Source of the DNA: Verrucomicrobiia bacterium
Lineage (GTDB): Bacteria > Verrucomicrobiota > Verrucomicrobiia > Palsa-1439
Assembly: GCA_035541135.1 (NCBI GenBank)
Contig: DATKNW010000041.1
Coordinates: 30,565 to 94,564 of the forward strand
DNA length: 64,000 nt
Direction of reading: 5' to 3'
Shown: one piece after another, positions 10,901 through 64,000 of the stretch
How the letters are laid out: each line of letters starts with the position of its first letter
Position numbering within the stretch: position 1 is the stretch's first letter
Notes under the pieces: generated by a model
Seen by the model: the letters and a program-made list of their open reading frames with translations, nothing else
Told to the model about the DNA's origin: nothing
Database searches by the model: none
Translations under genes and position numbers: made by a program

Positions 10901-12380
10901 TTTGACTGGCAGACAACGCCGTTGCCACAAGATTAGTTGGGGTCGATGGCACCACGTTGGTGGGCATGGCAATGTCCAGACCCGAGCCCATGGTTTCCCC
11001 GGCTCCGTTCACCGCAGAAACGACGTAGTAGTACGTCGTCCCGTTCGATGCCGTTGTGTCGGTGTAGCTGGTGGTCACCACATTCGAGGCGATAGTCGTG
11101 CAGGGCCCACCCCTGGCAGTCGCGCGCTTGACATTGTAGCTCGTCGCCCCAGAACTGGCTGACCAACTCAAGCTGACTTGCGCGTTGCCCGGCGTCGCCG
11201 TCAAGCCGATGGGCGTCAGTGGCAGACCCGACGTGCGCGTCGGCAACGAGAACAGTAACGTGCCGAAGCCGGGATGATCGGTACACTGGTTGATCGTCAT
11301 CGCGTTTTCAGGTCGGATCGTGCTGGCCATGGTCGCCGTCCAGATCGGATTGGTGATCCCCATGCGGTTGTAGTAATGGTTCCACACCATCTCGTAAATG
11401 GGGCGGAAGAAGGTGCTCGCGTATGTCGCGATGCTGCCCTTGGCCGTGCCGTCGCATGCCGTCCACGAACTGAACGGTACATTCGTGACCAGCAGCCATT
11501 TCGCTTGGTATTCAAAGCCCGTGAACACGCGATCAATGCCGTAGCTGTACAAATCCAGCCCCTGCTTCCAAGCAATCTCGGCGTTTTCGGCCAGAAGGCC
11601 AATGCCAAGTTGGGAGTGATCGAGGTCGCGACTGGTTTCGTAGTTCCAGCCCTGCGCCTGAATGTAATTGGTCACAGCGCCGCTGCAATCAACCGCCGGG
11701 CCGTATTTGAACGCGTTCACCGCCGAATCGAACATTGCCTCATTATCAAGAAAGATGCCGAGGGACATAACGAACTCCATGCTGCTGCTGCTCCAGCCCC
11801 CGTCACCGGAAAAATCCTTGCAGATCGGATAGAAAACATTGAGCATCATCGTGCCGAACCGATTGTAATTGGTCCAGCCGGAGCCGGTATAGCGGAGGAT
11901 TTCGGCAGAGTTGATGAGCTTGGTCCCGTCGAGCGCGGCCAACAACCGCACGTCAGTGCCAGTTAGGTTTGTCAACAACCCGGACCAACCATCCAAGATT
12001 TGGATGGCTTTGTTCGCATACGCCTGGTTGCCCGTGATATACCATCGCAGCGCAAGATCATACGCCGCGACGCTGTTTTGATCCAGCGCGGTTCGATTCA
12101 CGTCAGGATTTCGTCCAGCAGTCGCAAAACCGAACGGACCGCTTCCACCGTAGCTGGATTGGGAGAATTCATTGGTGGAGAACACATAATACCCGCTGGC
12201 CCAAGGCTGGGTATTTGACGCCACCATGCTCTTCATGCGGTCCAGATCCGCCTGGCTATGGTAAATCCCGGGATGAATGAAGTCGGCCCGCACGGGCCGA
12301 CTGGCCGCCGTGAGCCAGAGCAACCAGAACACTCCGACGACAACGAAGCGGCTGGTGACGTCGTCTTGCGAAACCCTCAT
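7512..12380 (-). CDS. giant secreted multidomain surface protein with alginate-lyase-like N-domain, FN3, LamG-like, PKD, InlB B-repeats, GloVer repeats and a conserved C-terminal domain
   Basis: 1622-aa ORF with signal peptide ([18 protein letters not shown]). N-domain ([17 protein letters not shown]...) is alginate-lyase-like and paralogous to the N-domain of 45689..48235. FN3 signature [16 protein letters not shown]...[10 protein letters not shown]. LamG-like domain ([15 protein letters not shown]). PKD domain (WYWSFGDGG). InlB B-repeat units ([10 protein letters not shown]). Six GloVer units ([32 protein letters not shown]...GTVFRI). C-terminal ~140 aa is shared with three other genes in the window. 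Confidence 0.8.
   Translation of the reverse strand: [1622 protein letters not shown]
8240..9140. repeat. tandem ~153-156-nt repeat array encoding GloVer (Gloeo_Verruco) peptide repeats inside 7512..12380
   Basis: Successive units such as gtcgtcccgtagaaattgc(t/c)gtcgctgccttgaacca(g/a)ccc(c/g)gcataggg...gatccgaaatacggtgcc are near-identical at nucleotide level. The last units are almost perfect copies. Confidence 0.7.
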
Positions 12381-27271: not shown

Positions 27272-27451
27272 GATCCTTACCGCTCCCAACTCAGTTGTTG
27301 TAGTTGTTTCAGAAATCTGTCGTCCCACCTCATCGCCCAGCCCTCGGAGCCACTCCGGTACACAGCCTGCCTGCTTCCCGCCTGTTCCACAGCACCATTG
27401 CTGCCAGCCGGCCGTCAACACGGCCGGCTGGCAGCCAACCAAACACAATGC

Positions 27452-51121: not shown

Positions 51122-51165
51122 GTGGCACGTTACGCTATTCGAGATAAAACAGGGGTGAACATCAC

Positions 51166-52383
51166 GTGTCCGTAGCAATGAAACATGCGGCGATCAACGC
51201 GCTTTTGGTTGTCCTGTCGTTCGGAGCCGGCCATCTGATGGCTCCGCCAAAAGCTCGAAATGATAGCCACAGCGACGCGCTGTTAACGGCGGGAAGATCC
51301 AGCGATCAAACGGTAATGAACGCGACAATGCGGGCAGCCCCTGGCAGTCCGACAAATTCAAACGCGCCACTACTGTCGAAAAATGACACCTCAAGAACGG
51401 ACGAGATCAAGAGTTTGCTATACGGACTCGGTGACGAACTGGCCAGTGAACAGGCTTATGACAAACTGATGCAGCGGTTACTGGCTCTGGCGGCGGTAGA
51501 TCCGCATGGAGCCGTTGATTATGCGGTGCATCATCTCAAGCCGCCATTTCAAGAGGTGGCGCTGACAAAGGTCCTCGGAGTCTGGGCGGGAAACGATTCG
51601 CAATCAGCATGGGATTGGGTGAAGACCAACAAGGCGGACGACTCGTTGCTTGTCGGCACCGTGCTGAACGAGGTGGGGAAAACGCAACCGGACACCGCCT
51701 GGCGATTTGCCACGGAGCTTGGGAGCACGATGCCCCAAGAGGCCGCGGGCCTGTATGTCAGCGTCATCAACGGAATGTTGTACGCCGGCAGGTACGAAGA
51801 TGCCACGCGGCTGTTGGATAGCGCCGTTCTGCCGAAAAATGTGCGGGAATCAGAATATGGTCTCGCTGGTTTTCTGGCCGGTCAATGGGCCGAGTATCAG
51901 CCTAATCGGGCGGCTGCATGGGTTCTTACGTTGCCGGAAGGCGGCTCGGCGCGCAGACAAGCGCTGGCCGCTCTCGGTCAGTCGTGGGCCGTTGTTGACC
52001 CGGAGGGGGCAGCCAATTTCGCAGCTGAACTTCCGCCGGGCCCCGAACGTGTTTCCATGATGGCATCGGCTGTCGATGCGTGGTTTGCCAAGGATCCCAA
52101 ACAGGTTGATACGTGGATTGCAATGCTGCCTCAAGGAGCCGATTACGACCAGTTCGCAGCAGCCATTGCTGTGGCGCCGCGGATTATTAACAGCGATCCC
52201 GAAGCCTCGGTGCAGTGGGCCATGGCGATTTCCGACGACGAACTGCGAATGCAGAGCCTGAGCAAGGTCTTTGTCCAATGGTTCCAACAAGCTGATGTCG
52301 ATGCCATGGCCTATCTGACACAGATGCCGCCAGCCATTCAAAGCGAACTCCGTAAGCGAGTAGGGATTGTCAACGGGCCGTGA
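51166..52383 (+). CDS. membrane-anchored alpha-helical repeat protein (hypothetical); paralog of 49862..51121
   Basis: N-terminal TM (AAINALLVVLSFGAGHLMA). Collinear with 49862..51121 (DELASEQAYDKLMQRLLALAAVDPHGAVDY...; SQSAWDWVKTN; PDTAWRFATELG; RAAAWVLTLPEGG; PKQVDTWIAMLPQG). Confidence 0.6.
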   Translation: MSVAMKHAAINALLVVLSFGAGHLMAPPKARNDSHSDALLTAGRSSDQTVMNATMRAAPGSPTNSNAPLLSKNDTSRTDEIKSLLYGLGDELASEQAYDKLMQRLLALAAVDPHGAVDYAVHHLKPPFQEVALTKVLGVWAGNDSQSAWDWVKTNKADDSLLVGTVLNEVGKTQPDTAWRFATELGSTMPQEAAGLYVSVINGMLYAGRYEDATRLLDSAVLPKNVRESEYGLAGFLAGQWAEYQPNRAAAWVLTLPEGGSARRQALAALGQSWAVVDPEGAANFAAELPPGPERVSMMASAVDAWFAKDPKQVDTWIAMLPQGADYDQFAAAIAVAPRIINSDPEASVQWAMAISDDELRMQSLSKVFVQWFQQADVDAMAYLTQMPPAIQSELRKRVGIVNGP

Positions 52384-58155: not shown

Positions 58156-59217
58156 TTAGAGAATCACCATGTCGTCACGGTGGATGACCACACCCGTGGC
58201 GGACTTGATTTGGATGCCGGCAACCTTGGTCAGGCCGCGCGCGAATTCAATTTGATCCTTGTCGCGGATGCTGACGACGTCGCCTTCCTCGAACTTCCCT
58301 TCCGAGCCGATGATCCCTTTGGCCAGCAGGCTTTTACCGTTGGAGCACAGCGCCGCTTTTGCCCCGTCGTCGACGGTCAGCACGCCCGCGGGGCGCTGAA
58401 AAAACGCGATCCAGCGTTTGCGGCTGGCCAGCTTGTCGGCGTGCGGGAGAAAGATCGTGCCCACATCTTCGGCGGCGAGAATATCACCAAGGACATTGGC
58501 GCGCTCGCCGTTGGCGATGACGAGCGGGATGCCAACGCGCGTGACGATCTTCGCGGCGTCGATTTTGGATTTCATGCCGCCGACGCTCGTGGCGCGGTTC
58601 GTGCCGCCGGCGAGCAACTCGATTTCGCGCGTGATTTCGGGAACGGCAGGGACGACGTGTCCATCCCGTTCCAGCAATCCATCGACGTGCGACAGGATGA
58701 CCAGCAAATCGGCGTCGACGAGCGTGGCCGCGAGCGCACCGAGCCGGTCGTTATCGCCGAATTTGATCTCGTCGACCGAGACGGTGTCGTTTTCGTTGAT
58801 GATCGGGACTACGCCGCGCGCGAGAAGCGTGGCCAGCGTGTTGTGCGCGTTCAGGTGGCGCGTCCGGTCTTTCAGGTCGTCGTGGGTCAGCAGGATTTGC
58901 GCGACGGTAATCGCGGATTGACTAAACAATTCGTCGTAGACGGCCATCAATTTGCTCTGGCCGATGGCGGCGGCGGCCTGGAGTTCGTCGAGGCGTTTCG
59001 GCCGCTGTTTCAGGCCGAGCTCAGCCATGCCTGCGCCAATGGCACCGGAGGAGACGACGATGATCTGTTTTTTCTGTCCGTGCAGCGCGGCGATCTGGGC
59101 GACCAGCGCTTCGATCTGACGCAGGGCAAGATGGTTTTGCGCATCGGTCAACAAGCCCGTGCCGAGCTTGATAACGACGCGGTTGACCTTGGCGAGGATT
59201 TCGTGGCGCAGTTTCAC
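58156..59217 (-). CDS. proB: glutamate 5-kinase with C-terminal PUA domain
   Basis: ORF 58156..59391 has an implausible Cys-rich N-terminal extension. The likely start is GTG at 59217 (VKLRHEILAKVNRVVIKLGTGLL). ProB kinase blocks VVSSGAIGAG and PIINENDTV, plus a PUA domain. The stop abuts the proA start (TAAATG). Confidence 0.8.
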   Translation of the reverse strand: MKLRHEILAKVNRVVIKLGTGLLTDAQNHLALRQIEALVAQIAALHGQKKQIIVVSSGAIGAGMAELGLKQRPKRLDELQAAAAIGQSKLMAVYDELFSQSAITVAQILLTHDDLKDRTRHLNAHNTLATLLARGVVPIINENDTVSVDEIKFGDNDRLGALAATLVDADLLVILSHVDGLLERDGHVVPAVPEITREIELLAGGTNRATSVGGMKSKIDAAKIVTRVGIPLVIANGERANVLGDILAAEDVGTIFLPHADKLASRKRWIAFFQRPAGVLTVDDGAKAALCSNGKSLLAKGIIGSEGKFEEGDVVSIRDKDQIEFARGLTKVAGIQIKSATGVVIHRDDMVIL

Positions 59218-59298
59218 GTAAACGGAAGAGATTACCAAAACGGCGCGGGTGTGTCGAGAAGGGAGGTTATGGCAGCTTGAGCAGCAAGGACTTGCAAA

Positions 59299-59378
59299 CT
59301 TGATATCGCAAATTGCGATATCAAAAGCAGGGCGAGGCGGGCACCGGTACCAGCCAGGGGTGTTTACCGAGCACGGGT
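59299..59378 (+). pseudogene. degenerate fragment of an ORF6N-domain gene, including a 25-bp perfect palindrome
   Basis: TTGATATCGCAAATTGCGATATCAA plus aagcagggcgaggcgggcaccggtaccagccaggggtgtttaccgagcacgggtag. This parallels 59632..59710 inside the intact gene (TTGAGGTCGCAAATTGCGACCTCAA plus agaaggggcgaggcgggcgtcggtaccagccgtatgttttcaccgagcacgggg). The fragment reads GRGGHRYQPGVFTEHG then a stop. Confidence 0.45.
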
Positions 59379-59383
59379 AGCAC

Positions 59384-60013
59384 TTGTCCAAGAAGCGGCA
59401 GCTCGCTAGACTGCGGGGTCAAATGAGCGACGACAAGGCGATTGTGCCCGTCGAACGAATCGAGCGGTTGATCTATCTGATTCGCGGACAGAAAGTGATG
59501 CTCGATTCTGACCTAGCGGAAATATATGGGGTCACGACGAAACGATTGAACGAACAGGTCGCGCGAAATGTGGAACGCTTCCCGCTTGATTTTGCATTTC
59601 AGCTTACGCGGCAAGAGGTTACACATTTGAGGTCGCAAATTGCGACCTCAAAGAAGGGGCGAGGCGGGCGTCGGTACCAGCCGTATGTTTTCACCGAGCA
59701 CGGGGCGATCATGCTGGCCAGTGTGCTCAACAGCCCGGTGGCGGTGCGGGCCAGCGTCCGGGTCGTGCGGGCGTTCGTGCGGCTGCGGGAGATGTTGGCA
59801 TCGAATCGGGAACTCGCGCAGAAGCTGGCCGAATTGGAAACGAAGTTCGAAGGCCACGACGACGCGATCCGCAGTTTGTTTGAAGCCATCCGCCAACTTC
59901 TCGCAACGCCGGAGCCGAAGCGCCGCAAGATCGGGTTCCATGTCAGGGAGAAGCGGGCGCGGTACGCTGTGCGTGGTGGCGGCGGCAGGAATTCGCAGCG
60001 GCGGCGGATGTAA
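59384..60013 (+). CDS. ORF6N (KilA-N-like) domain protein
   Basis: Block IERLIYLIRGQKVMLDSDLAEIYGVTTKRLNEQVARNVERFPLDFAFQLTRQE...TSKKGRGGRRYQPYVFTEHGAIMLASVLNS is typical of ORF6N-domain proteins. The C-terminal half is helical and charged (KLAELETKFEGHDDAIRSLFEAIRQLL). Confidence 0.75.
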   Translation: MSKKRQLARLRGQMSDDKAIVPVERIERLIYLIRGQKVMLDSDLAEIYGVTTKRLNEQVARNVERFPLDFAFQLTRQEVTHLRSQIATSKKGRGGRRYQPYVFTEHGAIMLASVLNSPVAVRASVRVVRAFVRLREMLASNRELAQKLAELETKFEGHDDAIRSLFEAIRQLLATPEPKRRKIGFHVREKRARYAVRGGGGRNSQRRRM

Positions 60014-60042
60014 TGGGTCAGAGTGGCAAGGAGACGCGACCA

Positions 60043-60396
60043 ATGATCATTCATGATCTAACGGACAACGAGGGACGCGTATTCGCCTTTGAAATAGAGG
60101 ACTTTCAGTTTGGCAGAGAGAGCGTTTGCAGGTTGGTTCAGTCCATTCCGGGCGCACACGTTCTTCGATCACCGAAGAGGTATTTGTCCTGGTTTCGAGA
60201 AGACGTGTTTTGTGAGTTTGAACTACATGGTAAGAGCTTTCGGGCGTGGGAGCCGTTCGGAGATAACAATCGCTATTGGATTGGTCCAGAGCCACCAAAG
60301 TGGTGCGAGGAGATCGGATTAGTTCGTGAAGCCTTCTTGAAGCAGTCACCGGAACCCCGGAAGGGGATCGTCGCGTTGCTGTTTTCGAAGTGGTGA
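60043..60396 (+). CDS. hypothetical small protein, probably co-translated with the ORF6N gene
   Basis: ORF 60013..60396 overlaps the ORF6N stop (TAATG). The internal ATG at 60043 is preceded by AAGGAG with 9-nt spacing (ggcaaggagacgcgaccaATG). Product MIIHDLTDNEGRVFAFEIEDFQFGRE... (117 aa, Trp/Phe-rich, no recognised family). Confidence 0.5.
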   Translation: MIIHDLTDNEGRVFAFEIEDFQFGRESVCRLVQSIPGAHVLRSPKRYLSWFREDVFCEFELHGKSFRAWEPFGDNNRYWIGPEPPKWCEEIGLVREAFLKQSPEPRKGIVALLFSKW

Positions 60397-61133
60397 TGTG
60401 TCAACTGATCGCAGCGGAGACTTCAGCTTTGATCAAGACGGGGCTCATTTGAATCTCTTCGGCCCGCCGGTCCAGGTTCTCGCTTCAATTACCCGTAAAT
60501 GAGACAAGCCCTCGAAGCTGTTGTCGCTATTATTTTCCGTGTTTCGGGGTAAAGTTGGCCCGGTATGCGGAGTCGGCACGGCATGGAAGATGGTCGATGG
60601 GAGATGCCCCCGAGGGAGAAGGGGGAAAGTGGACTGGAGACCTATCGGTCCGATAGTGCGCGCGGTCGGGAGACCTGCGCACAACATACTTGGGATCGGG
60701 CAAGGTCGGAACGGCAAAGCGCCGACCCGTCGACCCCGCTCAGGACGAGCGAGTCGGCGCACTCCAAAAAGGTCGACACGATGGCATTGCCCCCCTCCCC
60801 CCTATTTCTGCGAAACGAAGCCAACGCTTTTCGGGGAACGTTGCTTGTGCATGCCACAGTCGGACAAGGGGTTACGGAAACCAAAAACGCGAAAAACGCG
60901 TTGGCTTCGTTTGGCTTCGTTTTGGGGTCCCGAGTGCCCGTTAGAGGTGTTCTGATGAGGGGTTGTGAGCCGAGATTGGCGATGGTGTGGCGTGCTACGG
61001 ACTGCTTCGGAAAGTACGTTGACAGAGGGGGTGAGTTTGATAGAGTGCCCATGGCGTTACCCCCGTTGATTTGGGAAGTTGGCTCCTGCCTCTCGACAGG
61101 CAGTACAAACTCACAAAGAGGAAGTTTAAGAAC

Positions 61134-63911: not shown

Positions 63912-64000
63912 ATCGCCCAAAAACAGCGAAAATTGCACAGGGCCGGGTCGGTGACCCGGCCCTGTTCATTTTGGCGCAGGTGTTGCTTTGAACCAAAAGC

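Follow-up and report, generated by a model that had tools for sequence, protein, structure and literature searches.

The ORF6N-domain gene that lies between proB and the pyruvate phosphate dikinase gene (ppdK, from ~61134) raises the question of why a perfect palindrome should be embedded in its reading frame and should recur just upstream of it. The first-pass annotation of this DNA placed the upstream copy in an autoregulatory role and joined the gene to a small downstream ORF as its partner. Here both proposals are set against related loci and against palindrome sites from metagenomes, and the origin and possible function of the palindrome are weighed. The window denotes the whole 64-kb stretch of DNA analysed; the features of the locus are collected in Table 1.

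Table 1. Features of the ORF6N locus, in positions of the window
Feature	Position	Strand	Remarks
proB (glutamate 5-kinase)	58156..59217	-	AA_kinase and PUA domains (Pfam); divergent neighbour upstream of the ORF6N gene
ORF6N relic (pseudogene fragment)	59271..59380	+	corresponds to ~ residues 59-94; ends in TAG (59378-59380)
Upstream perfect palindrome	59300..59324		inside relic; TTGATATCGCAA-A-TTGCGATATCAA
Putative ORF6N promoter	59384..59412	+	-35 TTGTCC (59384-59389), 17-nt spacer, -10 TAGACT (59407-59412)
ORF6N-domain gene, 196 aa	59423..60013	+	winged-helix N-domain, long helix 105-142, disordered basic tail
Internal perfect palindrome	59626..59652		inside ORF6N gene; 13-nt arms, 1-nt centre; encodes L69-K77
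Most conserved coding stretch	59653..59704	+	KGRGGRRYQPYVFTEHG; directly 3' of internal palindrome; mosaic allele breakpoints cluster there
Cargo ORF, 117 aa, without family match	60043..60396	+	Shine-Dalgarno AAGGAG (60028-60033)

Results

The ORF6N protein and its genomic setting

The protein matches Pfam ORF6N (PF10543) over residues 17-101 with 119.9 bits against a cut-off of 27.8 (E 6e-35), in agreement with the NCBI annotation, and one search returned at least 8000 relatives at E ≤1e-10. In its AF2 model, a winged-helix domain is joined by a 38-residue helix (105-142) and by a basic tail that is disordered; the codons of the internal palindrome cover the end of helix 63-73 and the first residues of a low-confidence KKGRGGRR loop. 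A PDB sequence search with the protein found no relative, and its best structural matches are the winged-helix DNA-binding domains of pSK1 Par, MerR-family regulators and RacA. These proteins multimerise via a coiled coil and bind inverted or repeated sites, which in the case of pSK1 Par are repeats adjoining its own gene. Three PDC-S05 models of PADLOC are matched (E 4.6e-58, 1.6e-53 and 3.5e-36), and PHROGs labels relatives as anti-repressors. The Pfam, PADLOC and PHROG matches support the earlier assignment to a DNA-binding, anti-repressor-like family that is a candidate for defence.

What defines a PDC candidate is its embedding in a BREX, DISARM or type I R-M operon (10.1101/2024.01.29.577857), and a Treponema homologue matches this definition, being embedded between hsdM and hsdS of a type I R-M operon. 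One PDC-S05 representative is reported to have protected E. coli ~1000-fold against T7 and T5 (10.1101/2024.09.26.614923); this protective member is described with a RhuM domain, whereas the protein of the window is of the ORF6N type and is a candidate only. PDC-S05 was also among the 12 most abundant types of defence system in a cold-seep survey. Orthologous ORF6N loci include TIR_2, PD-(D/E)XK or FRG cargo, 33 of 80 ORF6N relatives lie within the atp operon, and no defence system was seen between proB and ppdK around the gene of the window. The synteny with proB, whose likely start codon is the GTG at 59217, is kept in loci L002, L005 and L235-L238. An integrative element with an integrase was rejected for the window and most loci, where no integrase or recombinase adjoins the ORF6N gene; plasmid or ICE contexts in Bacteroides and Sulfuricurvum are the exceptions. 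A weak ORF6N-HMM match elsewhere in the window (51133-51282, E 0.24) was also rejected, since it has neither a palindrome nor similarity by eye.

Two palindromes at one locus

The upstream sequence TTGATATCGCAAATTGCGATATCAA is a perfect palindrome with 12-nt arms around a 1-nt centre. Within the gene, the perfect 25-mer TTGAGGTCGCAAATTGCGACCTCAA lies at 59627-59651, 5 nt away from the 59632-59656 of the first-pass annotation, and its symmetry extends to 13-nt arms, the full palindrome being TTTGAGGTCGCAA-A-TTGCGACCTCAAA. Other particulars reported earlier were reproduced: the internal copy encodes LRSQIATSK, both copies hold the core TCGCAAATTGCGA, and their arms differ by complementary changes, ATA/TAT in one and GGT/ACC in the other. 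The two are not due to chance, because 50 shuffles of the window yielded not one palindrome with a 1-nt centre and arms of 12 nt or longer, and the whole 64 kb hold only two palindromes of this family, both at the ORF6N locus.

When folded as ssDNA, as had been suggested as a check, each palindrome reaches -10 to -14 kcal/mol (z -5 to -8), and each arm pair gives a stable hairpin from either strand. Neither strand carries a T run at the palindromes, and the terminator scan made no call of an intrinsic terminator there. The consensus scan for promoters and terminators found no promoter and a single, unrelated, weak terminator-like site inside the small ORF, while the Rfam 15 covariance models gave no match at E ≤1 between 59150 and 60500.

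Conservation and covariation across the family

The palindrome occupies the same codons (69-77) in ~90% of ~250 ORF6N genes, among them genes of Verrucomicrobia, Acidobacteria, Nitrospirae, Legionella, Treponema, Bacteroides, Butyrivibrio and viral contigs. In a set of 80 genomic loci gathered by protein similarity alone (56-88% identity), which spans Verrucomicrobiota, Acidobacteriota, Nitrospirota, Elusimicrobiota, Deltaproteobacteria and others, 75 of the 84 gene copies have it at identical codons, each arm measuring 8 nt or more beyond a 3-nt centre. The arms are up to 20 nt long, extending outward to 17-20 nt in some lineages, and their sequences vary widely (GGTCGC, ATATCGC, AAGTCGC, ATGTCGC, GATCAC, GGTCAC and GGTTGC), with four different arm types among orthologous genes whose proteins are 82-88% identical. 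More distant ORF6N genes (38-57% identity, with various C-terminal domains) from Legionella, Treponema, Sulfuricurvum, plasmids of Bacteroides and Butyrivibrio, and viral contigs also retain the palindrome at an unchanged offset; the encoded amino acids differ in some of them, and the arms include GTCGAA/TTCGAC and GGTACAA/TTGTACC. The central base is A or T interchangeably. About 10-15% of the sites are imperfect, with single mismatches that make them intermediate between two common arm types.

The two arms change in concert. Among 78 distinct sequences, 13 of 16 arm pairs have two-sided changes (139 cells), with hardly any one-sided ones; the observed covariation values were reached in none of 500 shuffles, and pairing falls from 84% to 29-40% when the partner is slid by 1-3 nt. 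Several covarying pairs join a synonymous with a non-synonymous position (TCG/GCG, Ser/Ala; TCA/GTG, Ser/Val; TTG/GCA, Leu/Ala) and are therefore beyond what protein-level selection can produce. Codon usage at the palindrome is also extreme compared to the rest of the same genes, and rare codons are used. The earlier proposal that selection acts on the nucleotides and not on the peptide is borne out by the covariation across the family, the codon skew and these mixed pairs. What that proposal chiefly omitted is the breadth of the phenomenon, the internal palindrome being, on these comparisons, characteristic of the entire ORF6N family.

A trend of covariation between the recognition helix and the half-site was also noted. 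Phylogeny confounds this trend, and site types are mixed among the extragenic copies of one locus, so that the trend is not used as proof.

Constraint on DNA and association with ORF6N genes

An unbiased scan of metagenomes used a motif that was free at positions ±4, ±7 and ±8 and did not touch ±13. Among 100 distinct in-gene sites, Watson-Crick pairing at ±4, ±7, ±8 and ±13 amounts to 97, 87, 84 and 93%, respectively, and the mispairs on the sense strand comprise 8 G·T and 16 A·C. Because a G·U signature is absent, the constraint acts on the DNA. The sites are closely tied to the gene: 123 of the 136 hits lie in or beside an ORF6N gene, 101 of them inside and 22 outside at a distance of 2-1377 nt, with 20 of the latter within 240 nt and mostly on the 5' side. 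The other 13 are on contigs without a detectable ORF6N gene, many at contig edges. With this distribution, and with two copies in 64 kb, the element does not behave as a dispersed repeat of the REP/BIME, RPE or MITE-like kind. Exact matches to the motif outside ORF6N genes in viral contigs proved to be ordinary terminators (GAGGTCGC...GCGACCTC with a T run); the TTGA/TCAA ends are missing from them, and they have no relation to the element.

Tandem in-frame units, two or more, are common within ORF6N genes, and all spacings are multiples of 3. The gene of locus L113 carries seven units, each with its own arms, and ~100 added residues of LRSQxxTxx repeats. Upstream copies occur in 22 of 48 stand-alone loci, compared to none of the 33 with the gene sandwiched between atpA and atpG. 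The upstream copy of orthologous acidobacterial loci fills exactly the interval from a -10-like TATGAT to a conserved in-frame ATG, and some of these orthologues keep only a stem of it; at some loci two palindrome copies are placed 27 nt apart. Non-coding copies keep the blocks TTGA at ±9 to ±12 and CAAWTTG at the centre.

The upstream relic

The upstream fragment is a pseudo-copy of the middle segment of the gene, as first described, but it is now seen to extend over ~110 nt and to end 43 nt before the ATG. It is 76% identical over 105 nt to positions 59600-59704 of the gene and matches positions 42-79 of Pfam ORF6N (E 9e-5) and 51-87 of the family HMM (E 1.5e-9), with a tblastn E of 2e-9. 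The GRGG..RYQP..FTEHG-like frame reported to follow its palindrome and to end in a stop codon is indeed present, closed by TAG. Both copies had been said to start with a perfect 25-bp palindrome; they are perfect, but the homology between relic and gene begins ~30 nt 5' of the palindrome, and therefore the copies do not start with it. A tandem duplication was rejected as the origin of the relic, as the 327-nt spacing matches no duplicated unit.

In 7 of 10 orthologous proB-ORF6N loci the relic is eroded or absent. These are L235-L239, with proteins 82-87% identical, and L001 and L004, in which a TPR gene takes its place. A perfect upstream palindrome is found only in the window, in L002 (arms GGTCGC) and in L005 (arms ATATCGC), the copy of L003 being imperfect; upstream of the gene in L005 there is a stack of three different palindromes, two of them further degenerate ones, together with a displaced C-terminal fragment. 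A promoter-like CTTGTC(G/C)-N17-TA(G/C)ACT, ~10-12 nt 5' of the ATG, is kept in L002, L005 and L235-L239, where its flanks differ. The putative promoter of the window, which scores below the threshold of the consensus scan and was identified by its conserved position, lies downstream of the relic. Since the relic is lost in most orthologues and the conserved promoter lies downstream of it, the relic is dispensable: it is a remnant of the ORF6N coding sequence that is decaying, and no essential operator at this locus. The same two observations speak against the upstream copy as the important autoregulatory partner that it had been taken for. An operator is expected as a dyad overlapping the gene's own promoter or transcription start; the placement in acidobacterial loci fits this, whereas the site of the window is ~60 nt upstream of the -35 element. 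The internal palindrome is far from any promoter.

The small downstream ORF

Translation of the small ORF had been thought to be coupled to that of the ORF6N gene through an ATG at 60013 that overlaps the ORF6N stop codon. Such coupling is unlikely, because all 47 aligned homologues begin at the internal ATG at 60043. The 114 homologues are all unannotated, the 117-aa protein has no family match in Pfam, PADLOC, PHROG or NCBIfam, and a fold search with its confident structure model gave no informative match. Its GC content is 50.6% compared to 58.5% for the window.

The pairing of the two genes, for which a check of other genomes had been suggested, does not recur: the small ORF is beside none of the 80 related ORF6N loci, and no ORF6N gene occurs in the contexts of its homologues. 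These homologues lie among arrays of small ORFs, behind a DUF6531 protein, or in the vicinity of AbiE and PIN-DUF433 genes. The slot 3' of the ORF6N gene holds something different in each orthologue, namely PD-(D/E)XK, DUF6869, DUF4136, FRG, TIR_2, or unknown genes together with IS1595. No conserved adjacent pair in the manner of type II toxin-antitoxin or toxin-immunity genes was seen across the genomes examined. The small ORF is variable cargo and no conserved partner of ORF6N; it is possibly an orphan immunity-like gene.

Discussion

The palindrome, its conservation throughout the family, its covariation, its DNA-level signature, its arrays and its association with ORF6N are established, and they require a DNA-level constraint that is tied to ORF6N genes. 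We tentatively favour, with somewhat less than even confidence, the reading in which the palindrome is the dyad site of a dimeric winged-helix/coiled-coil ORF6N protein, with optional extra copies near promoters; we infer that ORF6N is the binder and that expression is controlled by the binding. A self-binding site is favoured because the palindrome accompanies the DNA-binding domain whatever the host or the C-terminal domain, because it multiplies in arrays, because promoter-proximal placement recurs, and because the TTGA and CAAWTTG blocks persist in non-coding copies. In this reading the 25-27-bp palindrome is a cis element, at the level of DNA, that forms part of the ORF6N domain family; it is written in frame into a tolerant part of the domain-coding sequence, where a helix ends and a Gly/Arg loop starts, and would be bound by a winged-helix domain that precedes a long dimerising helix. 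Gene and site would travel as one self-contained unit, an arrangement that would suit a gene often embedded in foreign operons and moving between phyla. In genes with a promoter of their own, extra sites beside the promoter may act as operators, and the upstream copy of the window would be such an extra site, derived from ORF6N coding sequence, situated upstream of the promoter and being lost in relatives. The strict symmetry at variable positions, which are probably unread by the protein, needs an additional cause; this could be selection for a hairpin or cruciform function, or homogenisation by template switching between the close arms.

Other explanations cover parts of the same evidence. 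It is rather unlikely that the palindrome is a recombination hotspot, at which an extruded hairpin or cruciform would lead to breakage and repair and thereby to the exchange of N- and C-terminal halves or short patches between alleles, to local duplications and to ectopic insertions such as the relic. Signs of recombination are nevertheless present: 11 of the 20 mosaic pairs that are significant (~four independent events) have their breakpoint 30-50 nt 3' of the centre of the palindrome, as in L004, whose N-half is 36-38% and C-half 11-16% divergent; fragments in L003 (q48-76), L021 (q69-109) and L058 (q70-181) start or end at the palindrome; and the four arm types among close orthologues, the tandem in-frame duplications and the stack of L005 with its displaced fragment fit as well. 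Yet the breakpoints fall within the most conserved stretch of the ORF6N coding sequence, where homologous crossovers are expected anyway, the gene is linked to no recombinase or nuclease, and a hotspot explains neither ~90% retention at 40% protein identity nor the fixed placement by -10 elements. Quasipalindromes are documented hotspots of template switching, whereby one arm of a close inverted repeat templates the other and an imperfect palindrome becomes perfect (PMC7202029). A functionless palindrome that perpetuates itself in this manner, its arms evolving in concert and the protein tolerating the changes, would account for the strictly Watson-Crick pairing, the near absence of one-sided intermediates, the single mismatches between common arm types in imperfect sites, the outward extension of the arms and the dispensability of the upstream copy in the window. 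We consider it unlikely, given the retention across phyla and phages at 38-57% protein identity, the otherwise rare codons at every arm position, the in-frame arrays of 2-7 units adding up to ~100 residues, the conserved blocks of the non-coding copies, and the recurrent placement between the -10 element and the start codon or at a 27-nt tandem spacing. Moreover, the quasipalindrome hotspots represent a mutational process at isolated sites (PMC7202029), whereas the ORF6N palindrome is conserved throughout a family, forms arrays and keeps fixed positions.

A hairpin in the mRNA that stabilises its 5' end, switches translation initiation or serves as an RNase III/processing site, also within the polycistronic atp transcript, would agree with the fact that internal copies are always transcribed. 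The acidobacterial upstream copy, running from TATGAT to the start codon, would make a 5'-terminal hairpin that sequesters GAGG, and decayed orthologues retain the stem while their loops are altered. Such a role is nonetheless quite improbable: the counts of G·T and A·C mispairs on the sense strand (8 and 16) hold no wobble signature, one-sided changes are nearly absent, the central A/T flips freely and is thus strand-neutral, the upstream copy of the window precedes the conserved promoter, some extragenic copies are situated 3' of genes, and Rfam gave no match. Least probable by far is the module proposed in the first-pass annotation, in which an ORF6N regulator and a coupled small immunity- or antitoxin-like protein are autoregulated through the upstream palindrome. 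The two genes do lie on one strand, 29 nt apart, the Shine-Dalgarno sequence is a good one, and the contexts of the small-ORF homologues make an immunity-like role plausible. On the other hand, the comparative data (the missing association in either direction, the other cargo at orthologous loci, the conserved start codon distinct from the overlapping ATG, the loss of the relic in most relatives and the lower GC of the small ORF) largely refute it.

The ORF6N gene family is already known, as are cis sites inside the gene of their own binding protein. The strongest parS site of B. subtilis lies within the spo0J coding sequence, and, like parS in parB/spo0J, the ORF6N site is a perfect palindrome inside the gene of what is putatively its own dimeric DNA-binder, with further copies elsewhere. 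However, parS hardly varies and its sites are spread around the origin region, whereas the ORF6N arms vary freely yet remain symmetric, the copies are confined to the gene and its flanks, the arrays keep the reading frame and the protein has a fold with no relation to that of ParB. A ParB-parS or plasmid centromere module is not indicated either, with no ParA or ParB nearby and a chromosomal single-copy gene between housekeeping genes; the link to pSK1 Par is a structural resemblance of the DNA-binding domain only. The iterons of the phage lambda ori form an array of dyad sites inside gene O, bound by the N-terminal domain of the encoded protein. They resemble the ORF6N palindromes as an in-frame array in a tolerant, linker-coding part of the same gene, with a copy number that varies among relatives, yet ORF6N genes are single chromosomal genes, even inside the atp operon, without an AT-rich unwinding region, and, unlike at lambda ori, no evidence of replication initiation was found at their palindromes. 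Palindromic DNA may also lie in frame within genes in the case of the Rickettsia palindromic elements (RPE), and REP/BIME sequences form extragenic arrays; these elements are dispersed over many unrelated genes or intergenic regions, whereas the ORF6N palindrome is essentially restricted to ORF6N genes and their flanks.

Literature searches on ORF6N, on the motif strings and on perfect palindromes combined with anti-repressors turned up no account of it. The novelty lies in a palindrome that is in frame, covaries and forms arrays and whose conservation spans the entire family; the searchable literature holds no description of one. A single match to the motif was found in print, a doubtful one-spacer "CRISPR" entry in a table of a genome description.

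Conclusions

The ORF6N palindrome provides a clear example of overlapping codes, in which the amino acids are partly dictated by the structure of the DNA. It accounts for the rare codons and the odd repeats of ORF6N genes, repeats which CRISPR finders could plausibly misread, and it is relevant to the annotation of relic fragments that adjoin these genes. As a nucleotide element found throughout the family, it offers a mutable handle on the control or action of the abundant ORF6N/PDC-S05 genes. It is possible, if doubtful, that the family constitutes a self-contained module of a protein plus its own DNA site, capable of self-recognition independently of a promoter, and that the self-site is integral to the control or triggering of the PDC-S05 candidate anti-phage genes. 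The cognate palindrome, or in some members an in-frame array of up to seven, would thereby form part of the sequence that codes for the DNA-binding domain. If this holds true, the site would give a gene that embeds itself in type I R-M and atp operons and moves between phyla the means to recognise itself whatever promoter it is placed under.

ORF6N genes within operons

In 33 of the 80 loci collected by similarity to the ORF6N protein of the window, from Chthoniobacterales / Ca. Udaeobacter MAGs, the gene lies within the F1Fo ATP synthase operon in the order atpA-ORF6N-atpG, its start overlapping the atpA stop and its end lying 0-5 nt ahead of the atpG start (L008, L010-L017, L019, L020, L022-L029, L032, L034-L038, L040, L041, L043, L045, L047, L051, L059, L064). 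These genes keep the internal palindrome, in at least six arm types. Another ORF6N gene, on Treponema saccharophilum pTS1 (L214), separates hsdM from hsdS in a type I R-M system. It is followed by a Fic gene and carries the palindrome variant GTCGAAAATTTCGAC.

A conserved palindrome and a probable start codon

In acidobacterial loci upstream of a HhH-GPD glycosylase gene, the arrangement TATGAT, palindrome, ATGAA is conserved about 60 nt 5' of the annotated start (L055, L061, L063, L065, L070, L072, L075, L077). The true start codon there is probably the ATG immediately following the palindrome, whereby the protein gains MK(K/T)R..ATLL(K/R).

Repeated palindromes and gene fragments

Palindromes may also be multiplied. 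In L113, the coding sequence for a protein of roughly 400 aa with the ORF6N domain holds seven palindromic units, all in frame and set at intervals of 45-54 nt. Every unit is symmetric in itself, the arms differ from unit to unit, and the encoded repeats are LRSQxxTxx. At L073, two tandem palindromes directly precede the ORF6N gene, about 20 nt past the 3' end of a tRNA-like gene (called by eye), and no integrase is visible at this site. The repeat of a one-spacer "CRISPR" of Emergencia timonensis contains TCACAAATTGTGA (CRISPR prediction table, PMC10213047), and where palindromes of ORF6N genes stand in tandem, they could plausibly be mistaken for a CRISPR array.

L005, one of the orthologous proB-ORF6N loci, has a stack of three palindromes upstream of its ORF6N gene. 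All three differ, the last being similar to the allele of the orthologous L004, and a displaced C-terminal ORF6N fragment (q131-196 of the window protein) follows the DUF6869 cargo gene. Together, the stack and the fragment suggest that partial allele replacement has occurred here repeatedly.

The window also holds strong GC-rich inverted repeats unrelated to the ORF6N palindrome; one of them, with 13-nt arms right after the ppdK stop, is probably a terminator stem.

Coordinates of the features described
Feature	Source	Position
Inverted repeat, 16-nt arms, 4-nt loop	window	27400-27435
Inverted repeat	window	63937-63965
Inverted repeat	window	12281-12302
ORF6N-ppdK slot	window	60014-61000
TPR-repeat gene	L001	about 700-2939
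TPR-repeat gene	L004	about 700-2940
Stacked palindromes and displaced fragment	L005	2809-2950; 4051-4251
ORF6N gene in atp operon (example)	L014	2947-3567
Tandem palindromes	L073	1790-1890
ORF6N with palindromic units	L113	28-1233 (minus strand)
ORF6N in R-M system	L214	2501-3397

Variable flanks of the orthologous loci

In two relatives (L001 and L004), a TPR-repeat protein gene of about 2.3 kb lies between proB and ORF6N, replacing the relic region. On the other side, between ORF6N and ppdK, the window and the equivalent places of L001-L005 and L235-L239 have a hypervariable slot, its cargo differing with each orthologous genome: the 117-aa ORF (window), PD-(D/E)XK, DUF6869, DUF4136, FRG, TIR_2, and unknown genes with IS1595. 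The slot looks like a hotspot for small defence or immunity cargo, with ORF6N as its anchor.
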